A DNA stretch of 49,132 nt from Bacteroidales bacterium (GTDB taxonomy: Bacteria; Bacteroidota; Bacteroidia; Bacteroidales; VadinHA17). The notes beneath the pieces are model-generated. The model saw only the letters and a list, made by a program, of their open reading frames with translations, was not told the origin of the DNA and did not search any database. The position numbers were made by a program, and so were the translations under genes. Positions 263 to 29,057 of this stretch are shown piece by piece (within the stretch, counting starts at the first letter, position 1; every line of letters begins with the position of its first letter). The stretch spans positions 1-49,132 of the forward strand of contig JANNKF010000170.1 in assembly GCA_031396165.1 (NCBI GenBank), in the 5' to 3' direction.

Positions 263-300
263 TTCGGAAATTATTGGAAACACCACCTATTAAATATTAT

Positions 301-459
301 ATGACTATCGGCAATCATGAATAAGATATAGCAAAATGCTTGAAAATCAATTTATTTACCCCAGCCCCAAGGGGAGTAAATTGATTTTCTTCGCTCCCCA
401 TGGGGTCTGGGTAAACGAAGAAAATCAATGTATCTTTATGCATGATTGCCGATACTCAT
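301..459. mobile_element. MITE-like non-autonomous element (family F2), 159 bp, with terminal inverted repeats and target-site duplication
   Basis: TIR-L 301-319 ATGACTATCGGCAATCATG and TIR-R 441-459 CATGATTGCCGATACTCAT are 18/19 complementary. A perfect direct repeat TAAATATTAT abuts both ends (291-300 and 460-469). The interior is hairpin-rich with no credible ORF. A diverged second copy lies at 28901-29057. Confidence 0.75.
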
Positions 460-538
460 TAAATATTATTATGATAATCCAAAGTATTTATTCACTGCTA
501 TTTGCTTATTTTAGTCAAAATTTATAACACTTCAATAT

Positions 539-3085
539 ATGAAAAAACAACTCTTACTGTCAATTTTAACGACTGTGCTAACTCTCTGCTTCTGTGGAGC
601 CTTGGTGGCACAGGATTCACCACGCACACACGAATCATTCAACCAGGGTTGGAAATTCGTTAAGTATTTCAATGCTTCCGACGATGCAGAAATGTCAGAC
701 AAGGAACCTGCAAACCTTCAGCTTCCTTCTGTAAATGACAATAACTGGCGCACACTCGACCTTCCGCACGACTGGGCAATAGAAGGTCCTTTCAGCGATA
801 CGCTTGAGAATAATACCGGTCTTCTTCCTTGGAAAGGCATCGGATGGTACAGAAAACATTTTAATGTCAGTGAAAATGATAAAGGCAAGCGCATTTACGT
901 AAGTTTCGATGGTGCAATGGCGAATGCAAAAGTCTGGCTAAATGGAAAATATGTTGGAGAATGGCCATATGGCTATACAGCTTTTCAGCTTGACCTCACT
1001 CCTTATGTGATTGCTGGAAAAGAGAATATTATCGCTGTCATACTCGATACAAAAAACTGGGATTCAAGATGGTACCCGGGAGCCGGACTCTACCGTAACG
1101 TTTGGCTCACAAAAACCACACCTCTTCACCTGGCTTACAATGGTGTCTTCTGCTCTACACCTGAAATAAAGAAAGAGCGGGGAATGGTCAGTGTAAAAGC
1201 TGAAGTTGAAAATCATTTTAATGAAGTGGTTCCCGTTACTTTAAAAGCACAGATCTATAAGCTGAATGATAAATTTGAGATTACCGGCGCCCCTGTAGCT
1301 GAATCTGTTGTAGTTACAGCATCAATACCTGCCTTGAAGAACCACGATTTCAGATTTGATATTCCTGTTCCAAATCCTGTTTTGTGGGATGTCTATCAGC
1401 CTGAACTATACAGGGTTGCTGTTACAGTAATGCAGGGTACCACAGTAACTGACAAGTATGAAACCAATTTCGGTTTCAGAACAATAGTTTTTACACCACG
1501 TGATGGCATGCTTGTTAATGGTAAAAGAACCGAAATAAAAGGTGTTTGTAACCACCACGACCTTGGAGCACTCGGAGCTGCTTTCAACACACGTGCTGCT
1601 GAGCGTCAGCTTGAAATTCTTAAGGAGATGGGATGTAATGCCATAAGAACAAGTCACAACCCTCCTGCCCCGGAGCTTGTGGACCTGTGCGACAAGATGG
1701 GTTTCCTCATCCAGGTGGAAGCATTCGACACGTGGAGGATCGGCAAGAAAAGAAAAGACTACAATCTTCAGTTCAATGCCTGGCATCTGGAAGATGTAGC
1801 AGCAATGGTACGCCAGCACCGGAATAATCCATCGGTATTCATGTGGAGTATCGGAAACGAGGTACCTGACCAGAGAAATCCATACCTTTCGTCGGCCCTC
1901 AACACAATAGTAAAATCTGAAGATAATACTCGTCCGGTAACCGCAGGATGCAACGATGCGAATGCCGGAACAAACGGTTTCCAAAAAACGCTGGATGTGT
2001 TTGGAATCAACTATCACTTAGGCGATTACCAGAGGTTTTACGATCTTCCTGATAATGCTGCAAGAGGAATGTATTCAAGCGAATCAGCTTCAACGGTTAG
2101 TTCCAGGGGTGAATATTATTTCCCTGTCGTTACCGGCGACCTCAATAACAATCTTCCCGGCAAAGGGAGATTCCAGGTAAGTTCTTATGATATGGCATAT
2201 CCGGGCTGGGCAAGTACACCCGATCAGCAGTTCACACTTCTCGATAAATTTCCTGCAACTTATGGTGAATTTGTATGGACCGGTTTCGATTACATTGGAG
2301 AACCCACACCATACGGAGGCGACCTTACGGGTGTTGCACCTTCATCGAGAAGATATGAGCAAACCAAAAAGATGCTCGATGATAACGGAGTAAAAGAGGT
2401 TCCATCGCGCAGCAGCTATTTCGGAATAATCGATCTGGCAGGATTCAAAAAAGACCGCTTTTATATTTATCAGGCTAAGTGGAGATCTGAACTGCCTATG
2501 GCTCACATACTTCCTCACTGGAACTGGCCGGAAAGAAAAGGACAGGTTACACCGGTTCATGTTTATACCTCAGGTGATGAAGCTGAACTCTTCCTCAATG
2601 GAAAATCACTCGGCAGGAAGAAGAAAGCACAGTTTGAATACAGGTTGAAGTGGGATGATGTTGTTTACCAGCCCGGGGAATTAAAGGTTATTGCCTACAA
2701 AAACGGAGTCAAATGGGCCGAAGATATAATGAGAACTACTGAAAAAGCATCATTATTGTCACTGGCACCCGACAGACCGGCTGTTCGTCCCGATGGAAAT
2801 GACCTGATATTCATAACTGTACGTATTGAAGACAAAAATAAATTGCTTGTTCCCGGGACAAGCAACCTTGTAAACTTCGCAATTGAAGGTCCGGGTAAAA
2901 TCGTTGCAGTAGATAACGGCGATGCAACAAGTTACGAACCTTTCCAGGCATCAACAAGAAAAGCCTATAATGGGATGGCTCTTGTAATAGTCAAAGCCGA
3001 CAAGGGAGCAACCGGATCATTTACGGTAAAAGCAAGCTCAAAAGGATTGAAAGAAGCATCTGCAGTGATTAAGATAGCCAACTGA
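539..3085 (+). CDS. Glycoside hydrolase family 2 (beta-galactosidase/beta-glucuronidase-like), secreted
   Basis: 848-aa ORF with ATG start and signal peptide MKKQLLLSILTTVLTLCFCGALVAQ. GH2 TIM-barrel motifs CNHHDLGALGAA, IRTSHNPPAPELVDLCDKMGF, acid/base region WSIGNEV and FVWTGFDYIGEP. Confidence 0.9.
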   Translation: MKKQLLLSILTTVLTLCFCGALVAQDSPRTHESFNQGWKFVKYFNASDDAEMSDKEPANLQLPSVNDNNWRTLDLPHDWAIEGPFSDTLENNTGLLPWKGIGWYRKHFNVSENDKGKRIYVSFDGAMANAKVWLNGKYVGEWPYGYTAFQLDLTPYVIAGKENIIAVILDTKNWDSRWYPGAGLYRNVWLTKTTPLHLAYNGVFCSTPEIKKERGMVSVKAEVENHFNEVVPVTLKAQIYKLNDKFEITGAPVAESVVVTASIPALKNHDFRFDIPVPNPVLWDVYQPELYRVAVTVMQGTTVTDKYETNFGFRTIVFTPRDGMLVNGKRTEIKGVCNHHDLGALGAAFNTRAAERQLEILKEMGCNAIRTSHNPPAPELVDLCDKMGFLIQVEAFDTWRIGKKRKDYNLQFNAWHLEDVAAMVRQHRNNPSVFMWSIGNEVPDQRNPYLSSALNTIVKSEDNTRPVTAGCNDANAGTNGFQKTLDVFGINYHLGDYQRFYDLPDNAARGMYSSESASTVSSRGEYYFPVVTGDLNNNLPGKGRFQVSSYDMAYPGWASTPDQQFTLLDKFPATYGEFVWTGFDYIGEPTPYGGDLTGVAPSSRRYEQTKKMLDDNGVKEVPSRSSYFGIIDLAGFKKDRFYIYQAKWRSELPMAHILPHWNWPERKGQVTPVHVYTSGDEAELFLNGKSLGRKKKAQFEYRLKWDDVVYQPGELKVIAYKNGVKWAEDIMRTTEKASLLSLAPDRPAVRPDGNDLIFITVRIEDKNKLLVPGTSNLVNFAIEGPGKIVAVDNGDATSYEPFQASTRKAYNGMALVIVKADKGATGSFTVKASSKGLKEASAVIKIAN

Positions 3086-3217: not shown

Positions 3218-3349
3218 AATATTTCGGTGAGCTGCACCTTTGTCTTCCATGACAAACATTTATCTACAAATACCTGCCTGCCGGCAGGCAGGTATTTGTA
3301 GAAATGTTGTTGAAATATATAACAAAAAGGTGCAGAGCACCGAAATATT
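3218..3349. repeat. Composite palindrome: F1 unit (forward), perfect 38-bp palindrome, F1 unit (reverse)
   Basis: 3218-3241 AATATTTCGGTGAGCTGCACCTTT is the reverse complement (2 mismatches) of 3326-3349 AAAGGTGCAGAGCACCGAAATATT. The centre 3264-3301 CTACAAATACCTGCCTGCC|GGCAGGCAGGTATTTGTAG is a perfect palindrome, checked base by base. It lies between convergent genes, 10 nt past the stop of the minus-strand operon. Confidence 0.85.
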
Positions 3350-3358
3350 TAGTTCAGA

Positions 3359-4075
3359 TTAATCGAGATACCGGATCAGGTTTATTATTTCCTGAATATT
3401 TTTTATTCTGAATTTAGCGCTCTCACTGAAGAATTTCCTGATCTCTTTCTCTTTTTGAGGGAAAAACGGGGCTAAGCTTTTACGGGTAAATTTTCTGAAA
3501 CCAACAACTCCGGCATCCGGAAACACCACATAGTATACAGGCTCTTCTTTATACAGATCCTTAAGAATATAGCTTTTATGCATCGGAACCGTAACCTGTT
3601 TTTCGAAATAGAATGAGTGCAGGACATAAAGCGACATTTTACCACGGTATAATTCCTGTCCGAAGATCTCTATGGAATCGGAAAAATTATCCCTTTTTAC
3701 TTTCAATCGTCTGAAATAAACCGATGTATCTCCCTCAATATTAAGAAAATGAAAACGCAATACTGATTGTTTATCCAGTTTGATCGTTTTGTTTGAAGCA
3801 GGTTCAAGCCAGAATAGTTCATCAAGCAATCCATTATACCTGAGTTTCACATTTCTTACAAGTCGTCCGTCATTTAATTGTACCACTCCTACAAGCCATT
3901 CCCTGTTGAAATATGTTGTGATATCGGGCGATAAGGCTGGCGCAAAAAGTTCACCTGAGAGCAATGTCTCAATAGTAATACCTCTTTCATTCAGTGTATT
4001 AAATCCTGACTGACTGAATCCATTAATAGCGATTCCCCAGACAGATAAAAAAACTATAAGAATTTTTGTCCCCAT
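3359..4075 (-). CDS. Hypothetical secreted protein, last gene of the TonB-receptor operon
   Basis: 238-aa ORF with ATG start, only 3 nt downstream of the preceding same-strand gene. Signal peptide MGTKILIVFLSVWGIAINGFSQ. No family recognised. Confidence 0.7.
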   Translation of the reverse strand: MGTKILIVFLSVWGIAINGFSQSGFNTLNERGITIETLLSGELFAPALSPDITTYFNREWLVGVVQLNDGRLVRNVKLRYNGLLDELFWLEPASNKTIKLDKQSVLRFHFLNIEGDTSVYFRRLKVKRDNFSDSIEIFGQELYRGKMSLYVLHSFYFEKQVTVPMHKSYILKDLYKEEPVYYVVFPDAGVVGFRKFTRKSLAPFFPQKEKEIRKFFSESAKFRIKNIQEIINLIRYLD

Positions 4076-26249: not shown

Positions 26250-26438
26250 ATTAAAGGAATTTAAGTGAGTTGATTTTGTATTAGACAACTAATCTAAGTT
26301 AATTATTCCGGATATTTCAAAAAAAATACGGTATATGCTTCACAACATATAATTCTTATCTTGAAAGGGAGTGCGTAGATTGAATAAAATTTTTAATGAG
26401 TATAGGGAATCGCCAATAAGTTTTCAGCAGCTACAGGT

Positions 26439-26606
26439 AGATCCTTCACTGTCGCTCAGGATGACAGGGCGTGGTGGGGGTACATAAGGGAAAGAAGTGC
26501 CGGTTCGATGAAAATCTTAAGTAGGGGATTTAATTTTTACGAACCGGCACTTCTTTCCCCGTAATGACCCCAATTATCTGTCATCCTGAGCGGTAGCGAA
26601 GGATCT
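26439..26606. repeat. 168-bp long palindromic element (family F6)
   Basis: Outer arms 26439-26467 AGATCCTTCACTGTCGCTCAGGATGACAG and 26578-26606 CTGTCATCCTGAGCGGTAGCGAAGGATCT are about 25/29 complementary. Inner arms 26488-26507 GGGAAAGAAGTGCCGGTTCG and 26540-26559 CGAACCGGCACTTCTTTCCC are a perfect 20 bp. Confidence 0.85.
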
Positions 26607-28900: not shown

Positions 28901-29057
28901 AAGGCTATCGACAATTATTAATATTAATACTATTGGGCTTGAAAATCAATTATTTGCCCCGGCCCTAAAGGGAGTAATTGATTTTCTTCGCACCCTTTAG
29001 GGTAAGGGGCTAACGAAGAAAATCAATAGGGCTTTATGCTTAATTTGTAAACTTCTT
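28901..29057. mobile_element. Second, diverged copy of the F2 MITE-like element
   Basis: The core 28937-29039 aligns by eye with 338-441 at roughly 85 percent identity. Left-end homology (GGCTATCGACAATTATTA vs GACTATCGGCAATCATGA) is retained. The right TIR is degenerate and no TSD is visible. It has the same orientation as copy 1 and ends 26 nt before the ATG at 29083. Confidence 0.65.

Follow-up and report, generated by a model that had tools for sequence, protein, structure and literature searches.

Members of the IS1595 family of ISs carry a zinc finger and are usually flanked by 8-bp target-site duplications (TSDs) (PMC8101967). ISApl4 makes A/T-rich 8-bp repeats (PMC12561309), and an IS1595-type MITE of 165 bp with 8-bp direct repeats has been recorded (PMC3852290, Table 4). 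Here, we analyzed a 49,132-nt stretch of DNA (the window, in whose coordinates positions are given), which is contig C90 of a MAG (G000; 4.24 Mb, 478 contigs, 96% complete, 40% GC) from an uncultured Bacteroidales genus. Positions 300 to 460 very probably constitute a MITE derived from, and mobilized in trans by, an IS1595-family IS, a reading that comes from sequence comparison. Since a 1-kb IS1595-family IS in sister species has the same ends, the MITE would be ordinary mobile DNA.

A short element with inverted ends precedes a GH2 gene

The 10-mer TAAATATTAT can be read at both 291-300 and 460-469, and the inverted repeats that lie between these sites, 301-319 (ATGACTATCGGCAATCATG) and 441-459, are complementary at 18 of 19 positions. 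A search of the 49-kb window for the 19-mer terminal inverted repeat (TIR) with up to 3 mismatches returned only two sites, where shuffled sequences lead one to expect 0.06 and none of 100 shuffles gave two. The features of the locus, with the element boundaries that are derived below, are as follows.

292-299: left target-site duplication copy, 8 bp, AAATATTA, identical to 461-468
300-460: MITE, 161 nt with the terminal T at each end, non-coding, predicted rod fold
300-319, plus strand: left TIR, TATGACTATCGGCAATCATG, "ATGACT" type, matches IS ends
338-434, plus strand: hairpin core with the layout A-B-A'-B'-A'', from repeats and from pairing over 35 copies
441-460, minus strand: right TIR, reverse complement AATGAGTATCGGCAATCATG, "ATGAGT" type
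461-468: right target-site duplication copy, 8 bp, AAATATTA
539-3085, plus strand: GH2-family glycoside hydrolase gene, 848 aa (open reading frame and Pfam), context outside the element
28901-29057, plus strand: old diverged family copy with a type II core, 77% identical to 301-459

At 161 nt and without a transposase gene, the element falls within the size range of MITEs (about 50 to 1000 bp), and all members of the family have the same TIR. Both terminal bases of the window copy are T, where complementary ends would have a T and an A. The open frames inside it encode only 22 to 63 aa, none of them credible, and one of these frames exits the element. It is predicted to fold into a long rod, both as RNA (-66.8 kcal/mol, z = -10.1) and as DNA (z = -7.7). 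From its end, 79 nt separate it from the ATG at position 539, which opens the gene for the 848-aa GH2-domain protein; Pfam assigned Glyco_hydro_2_N, Glyco_hydro_2, Glyco_hydro_2_C, and DUF4982 to an identical protein. When the diverged copy at 28901-29057 was aligned with type II copies that keep their TIRs, its left TIR proved degenerate and its right TIR eroded, and no duplication was visible around it.

The preliminary description had read this locus as a non-autonomous 159-bp element with TIRs complementary at 18 of 19 positions and an identical 10-mer on both sides, lying 80 nt upstream of the GH2 gene, and had noted the diverged copy without a visible TSD. The sequence agrees with its account of the inverted repeats, of the 10-mers, of the missing coding capacity, and of the diverged copy. 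The TIR-bounded form and the upstream position were likewise right, whereas the length becomes 161 bp once the terminal bases are counted.

Two further repeat arrangements were seen in the window. Positions 1-262 hold an array of 53-nt units with GGTGC-NNN-GCACC hairpins, three in forward and two in reverse orientation, which looks REP/BIME-like; the genome contains 41 occurrences of the hairpin word, which was found near neither of the two Y1_Tnp genes of the host MAG. At 26396-26470, a solo TIR-like end (ATGAGTATAGGGAATCG, 3 mismatches) is followed by other cargo that contains ...GATCC...GCTCAGGATGAC. The same arrangement recurs with better TIRs on six other contigs of the MAG (C128, C268, C301, C392, C187, and C388) and is another sub-family using the same IS1595-type end.

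The family is multi-copy and dispersed

A blastn search detected about 15 copies of the 159-nt form in the host MAG, three of which are cut by contig ends. The copies on contigs C230, C8, C59, and C51 are 98 to 99% identical to the window copy, and the remaining ones are 79 to 94% identical. Five of the host copies are 98 to 100% identical, which points to a recent burst in this organism. A 17-nt TIR core with at most one mismatch was found at least 37 times in the MAG (19 forward, 18 reverse), and paired TIRs span 78 to 344 nt; shells with the same TIRs therefore hold different interiors. Contigs C51, C59, C363, C230, C424, C408, C310, and others start or end inside family copies. Since so many contigs end in this way, the repeat directly causes assembly breaks, and the copy numbers are lower bounds.

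Both in the host MAG and among 37 elements from other species, each copy lies in different A/T-rich DNA and has its own flanking repeat. At least 9 of 10 flanking positions matched in 9 of 20 host elements, compared with 1% of mismatched-partner controls, and at least 8 of 10 matched in 28 of 37 elements from other species, compared with 4% of controls. According to the preliminary description, other copies that lacked TSDs or had different termini would have spoken against a MITE; the many copies found share the same termini, each with a flanking duplication of its own. A 457-nt TIR-bounded element in another genome (L053, G016:C199:335-791) stands between two perfect copies of a flanking repeat, TTTATTTTAT. 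Both of its strands contain open frames of 153 aa, which probably result from the repetition of hairpin modules inside it.

In a first sample of 24 other species of the genus, 17 had the element or its core, as did none of 16 other families sampled. Of 39 species of the genus searched for the TIR, 19 carry it, and six other genera of the family gave single matches. A GTDB-wide scan for the exact TIR returned at least 112 stretches. Its matches outside the Bacteroidales are most likely due to chance, as we estimate that a few hundred chance matches are to be expected in 596 Gb. The record titles of the matching contigs name uncultured Bacteroidales MAGs from fen, peat, soil, lake, or sediment samples, and a plasmid collection yielded no match.

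The target-site duplication is 8 bp

A single perfect 10-mer at each side suggests a 10-bp duplication, which is what the preliminary description had reported. We therefore turn to the family as a whole, for which the 10 nt to the left and the 10 nt to the right of 44 TIR-bounded elements, chosen on inner positions only, were aligned. Flank positions 2 to 9 matched in a proportion of 0.89 to 0.98, far from the 0.49 expected by chance, whereas positions 1 and 10 matched at 0.43 and 0.57, respectively. Since only the inner positions depart from chance, the duplication is 8 bp long, and the 10-bp claim does not survive the per-position count. The duplications differ in sequence from copy to copy and are 95% A/T in a genome of 40% GC, and insertion takes place in runs of about 12 A/T bases; given this composition, the outer bases match by accident half the time. 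In the window copy, which lies in an all-A/T context, both outer bases of the 10-mer happen to match.

The autonomous relatives described below read TATGA... at both ends, and their 8-bp repeats abut those ends exactly. Bases 300 and 460 accordingly belong to the element. Together with the 8-bp register, this places the element at 300-460 and makes the duplication AAATATTA (292-299 = 461-468).

This result bears on a reading in which the MITE belongs to a family that makes 10-bp duplications (IS4/IS231-type or ISAs1-type) or is mobilized by a resident ISL3 element, which we regard as extremely unlikely. The flanks of the window copy and of a second host copy (G000:C211) do match at 10 of 10 positions, and an ISL3 copy with an 8-bp duplication resides on contig C422 of the same MAG. 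Against the 10-bp families, flank positions 1 and 10 are at chance over the 44 elements, and the DDE_Tnp_1 ISs of the host MAG (ISNCY, IS1182, and IS701) and 30 more from the genus, 33 loci altogether, have unrelated TIRs; the IS4 and ISAs1 types were rejected on these two grounds. As for ISL3, its TIRs read GGTTCTTCG..., its duplications include GC-containing 8-mers such as AGGGTCAC, and it is present in only 7 of 81 genomes. An ISL3-derived MITE would be expected to start with GG(C/T)TCTTCG, and the ISL3 TIR of the genus, GGTTCTTCGTCA.ATTTGGGG, has no similarity to the MITE ends, so that this candidate was rejected as well. No IS256-type transposase was found in the host MAG.

The resident ISL3-family IS itself (L273, G000:C422:522-2336) measures 1,815 bp and has a transposase frame of 552 aa and TIRs of 24 nt (GGTTCTTCGTCACATTTGGGGAAG); it is flanked by a perfect 8-bp duplication, GTGATATT. 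The additional hairpin modules of long MITE variants have a stem (GGTTCTTCG/CGAAGAACC) identical to the first 9 nt of this IS, which may be due to chance.

These analyses carry a lesson of method, namely, that one perfect flanking repeat in A/T-only DNA overstates the length of a duplication. A search among families with 10-bp TSDs (IS4 and ISAs1) would have been misdirected; the family-wide per-position count alone gave 8 bp and led to the right transposase family.

An IS1595-family IS of the same genus has the same ends

Since the 8-bp footprint pointed to the IS1595 family, we searched the genus for IS1595 transposases with PF12762. In other species of the genus, this search recovered ISs of about 1,005 to 1,010 bp (terminal bases included), whose ends read TATGA(C/G)T(A/G)TCGGNAAT; the core common to MITE and IS is TATGA(C/G)T(A/G)TCGG. 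The single gene of the IS encodes a transposase of 316 to 324 aa, and one frame of 320 to 324 aa takes up nearly all of the element. The transposase scored 195 bits on NCBIfam NF033547 (IS1595), for which the cut-off is 75, and has an N-terminal Zn_ribbon_IS1595 domain (PF12760) and a DDE_Tnp_IS1595 domain (PF12762). The preliminary description had proposed a search for an IS with the same TIR, which would reveal the mobilizing family, and such a transposase-encoding IS is present in the genus.

Eleven IS copies in nine species have these termini, and nine of the 11 are flanked by perfect 8/8 duplications; the duplications are mostly A/T-rich and stand in the same register as those of the MITE. 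The MITE and IS ends agree at 17 of the first 20 nt and at 24 of the first 30 nt, and they have in common a C/G asymmetry at TIR position 5. In most IS copies, the "ATGAGT" end lies upstream of the transposase gene and the "ATGACT" end downstream. The single TIR mismatch of the window copy (C versus G, position 5) thus appears to be inherited from the IS. The sampled IS copies differ from the TIR of the window MITE by 2 to 3 of 17 to 20 nt, and the true parent IS is not among them.

A match to the transposase at E ≤ 1e-30 was obtained in 20 of the 212 genomes of the genus, about 15 of which have this lineage. Intact frames are present in G221, G173, G301, G295 (two copies), and G010 (two copies); the others are broken. 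Of the 221 genera of the order that were sampled, 20 contain related ISs (47 to 71% identity). Those with findable inverted repeats have TATGA.T.TC termini, and the three whose flanks were checked have flush 8-bp duplications.

No IS1595 DDE domain and no relative of the transposase was found in the host MAG (96% complete, 478 contigs), so that the driver of the recent burst would lie outside the assembled genome. A search of the same MAG for the TIR with up to 4 mismatches returned nothing beyond short non-coding elements and solo TIRs next to ordinary genes. No transposase-encoding IS emerged from searches of 5 and then 150 genomes with at most one mismatch, and no parent IS was present in the regions inward of 33 unpaired TIRs. 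These TIR searches missed the parent because its TIRs differ by 2 to 3 nt. On contig C370 of the host MAG (3251-3685), we observed an open reading frame of 145 aa with an IS1595-type zinc-ribbon N terminus (27 to 30% identical to the N terminus of the IS transposase) and no DDE domain, which may be either a remnant or a stand-alone DNA-binding protein.

Empty sites show precise insertion of a sibling copy

A sibling of the window copy that is 98% identical to it (G000:C8:20650-20808) lies between two conserved minus-strand genes. In five species (G010, G006, G206, G184, and G007), the same two genes are 18 nt apart, and removal of the element and one duplication from the host contig leaves exactly 18 nt between them. 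The target is present as a single copy at each of these five empty sites, so that the filled and empty states correspond precisely. For a 221-nt variant (L073), compared with G000:C397, the duplicated word is likewise single at the empty site, in an alignment whose overall identity is only 67%.

For the window copy, orthologues of the GH2 gene in other species lack the element upstream, in intergenic DNA too diverged for a base-precise comparison. Its predicted empty site, ...CACCTATT-AAATATTA-TTATGATAATCC..., is the identical string under the 8-bp and 10-bp models. A search of a metagenome collection gave no match to this string and also none to the unique right flank, and so was uninformative. 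The sole other assembly with an identical GH2 protein starts inside the right arm of the MITE, and the filled site is present on a Logan contig from run SRR20217201.

The preliminary description had called the element a MITE and had proposed a check for empty sites; the copies, the precise empty sites of the sibling copy in five species, and the TIR-sharing IS all agree with that reading.

A hairpin core occurs inside and outside the shell

The element is a composite of an 81-nt shell and a 78-nt hairpin core. Within the core, GAAAATCAAT stands at 342-351 and at 420-429, its complement stands at 380-389, and the GC-rich arms are at 355-376 and 394-415. Elements of 81 nt consist of the two shell arms joined at a single GAAAATCAAT (G000:C349 and C275; five in other MAGs), and in the 159-nt form, two direct copies of that motif enclose a further 78 nt. 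Either the core was inserted into the shell, or the direct repeats recombined with loss of the core to give the short form. Longer variants (213 to 344 nt) have extra hairpin modules between GATTTT and CTTCG of the core, and a comparison of orthologous loci revealed one such module insertion in G010.

Copies of the core that lack both TIRs and duplications were found at no fewer than 8 intergenic positions of the host MAG, and many copies are present in G018, a genome without a TIR match. Over 35 distinct copies, three overlapping and mutually exclusive helices are paired at 97%, 90%, and 99%, and the AT-rich GAAAATCAAT motifs are nearly invariant. In three species (G000, G219, and G010), the same gene is preceded by a core-only copy at a distance of 4 nt from its ATG (G000:C154:10378-10469 [L018, L261], G219:C138, and G010:C46; gene N terminus MKKVLIL), and it is absent from that position in eight other species. 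The core copy there lies downstream of a conserved promoter-like CTTGCT box. The G000 and G219 copies of this core share 87% identity, compared with 73% in the adjacent coding DNA and about 55% in the flank upstream. Of 22 copies, 15 lie in the sense direction before a gene start, according to crude calls of open reading frames.

Such observations could mean that the 78-nt core is a selectively kept module, a leader-RNA switch or a protein-binding site, with the MITE shell as its carrier. This idea is compatible with the MITE reading and, in our view, unlikely to be correct. If it were, the window copy would influence expression of the GH2 gene that follows it, and the MITE family would be a delivery vehicle for regulatory elements. 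In its favor are the TIR-free copies in the host MAG and in G018, the shared site before one gene in three species with its excess of identity over coding DNA, the maintained pairing of the helices, the near invariance of the motifs, and the orientation of the copies. Several points weaken it, however. The compensatory changes are few and come mostly from one type I/type II split; the GC-rich arms of the G219 copy have decayed without compensation; the orientation bias is weak and derives from crude calls; and multi-copy repeats can stay alike by gene conversion without any function. Rfam yielded no match at the gathering score anywhere in the window, with chance-level hits only in 1-700 (E ≥ 0.24). 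The position and conservation of the core are thus suggestive of function, but gene conversion among repeats would explain them equally well.

The core-only copies, which have no flanking duplication, also bear on a reading as a REP/BIME-like palindromic repeat that is spread through single-stranded DNA by an HUH enzyme (Y1, RAYT, or IS200-like). The abundance of Y1_Tnp genes, which occur in 72 of 81 genomes of the genus and twice in the host MAG, fits this reading, which we nevertheless judge very unlikely. The TIR-bounded elements have variable 8-bp duplications, which HUH enzymes do not make, their termini are those of the IS1595 IS, and none of 32 Y1 loci adjoins the MITE or the core. An HUH enzyme could at most account for the core-only copies, and the RAYT-dependent REP/BIME class was rejected on the basis of the duplications and of the 32 Y1 loci.

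At a separate locus of the host MAG (G000:C354:1574-1915 [L230]), a Y1_Tnp gene has CCCCTGGT...ACCAGGGG hairpins on both sides, and a very similar hairpin module lies inside TIR-bounded shells of another species (G177, loci L054 to L059). REP-like units may become cargo of MITEs.

Discussion

If the element is an IS1595-derived MITE, its mobilization can be pictured from that family. The transposase would bind the two TIRs of roughly 20 nt, cut the element out, and join it to a target cut with an 8-bp stagger, and repair of the gaps would then produce the 8-bp duplication, here AAATATTA. Because the targets are A/T runs of about 12 bases, the element would land in intergenic DNA. The MITE would retain only about 30 to 50 nt of each IS end, and its middle would be the 78-nt hairpin module that also exists on its own. 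This account gives a name and a mechanism to one of many intergenic repeat families in an uncultured wetland and soil Bacteroidales genus, and it defines the termini (TATGA.T.TCGG) and the footprint that characterize an IS1595 clade with members across the order.

How does this family compare with those already described? The BOX elements of Streptococcus pneumoniae and the Correia elements of Neisseria are short and intergenic, with inverted ends and strong predicted folding, as is the element studied here. BOX, moreover, is made of end modules with a variable number of internal modules, much like the 81-, 159-, and 213- to 344-nt variants of the present family. In contrast, both are unrelated to it in sequence, and their duplications differ (TA for Correia). 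To our knowledge, no partner transposase has been established for BOX, whereas a partner family is identified for this MITE.

Within the Bacteroidales, BrickBuilt and other MITEs of Porphyromonas gingivalis are likewise intergenic and present in 10 to 20 copies per genome (PMC4596501). They are also modular, with a leader and a tail whose TIRs enclose a variable repeated interior, and their TIRs are shared with resident ISs (PMC4596501). The P. gingivalis MITEs, however, have TIRs of the IS5 family (GAGACC...) and short, irregular duplications of 2 to 9 bp, and their interior is a 23-nt tandem minisatellite (PMC4596501), whereas the present family has IS1595-type ends, regular 8-bp duplications, and inverted hairpin modules. 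REP/BIME sequences and their RAYT enzymes (PMC3733652) offer a further likeness, in that short GC-rich palindromes lie in AT-rich intergenic DNA and Y1 genes are abundant in the genus; in contrast to them, the TIR-bounded element makes target duplications, and no Y1 gene adjoins it.

The closest likeness is to the ISs and MITEs of the IS1595 family, such as the 165-bp MITE paired with ISHwa6 in Haloquadratum walsbyi (PMC3852290) and ISApl4 (PMC12561309), with which the present family has in common an A/T-rich duplication of 8 bp. As in that family, its TIRs, about 20 nt long, recur on an IS whose single gene encodes a transposase with a Zn-ribbon and a DDE_Tnp_IS1595 domain, and the copies are numerous, small, and non-coding. 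The termini set it apart: ISApl4 ends in GGGGCTGTACTAGA (PMC12561309) and the related Merlin elements of eukaryotes have conserved 5'-GG ends (PMC12561309, PMC8101967), whereas the ends here read TATGA(C/G)T(A/G)TCGG. It also differs from the known IS1595 MITEs in its host, which belongs to an uncultured genus of Bacteroidales sampled from fen, peat, soil, and sediment, and in its interior, a hairpin module that also exists outside the shell rather than IS-derived filler. The present MITEs, with their hairpin cargo, form a new family of a known kind.
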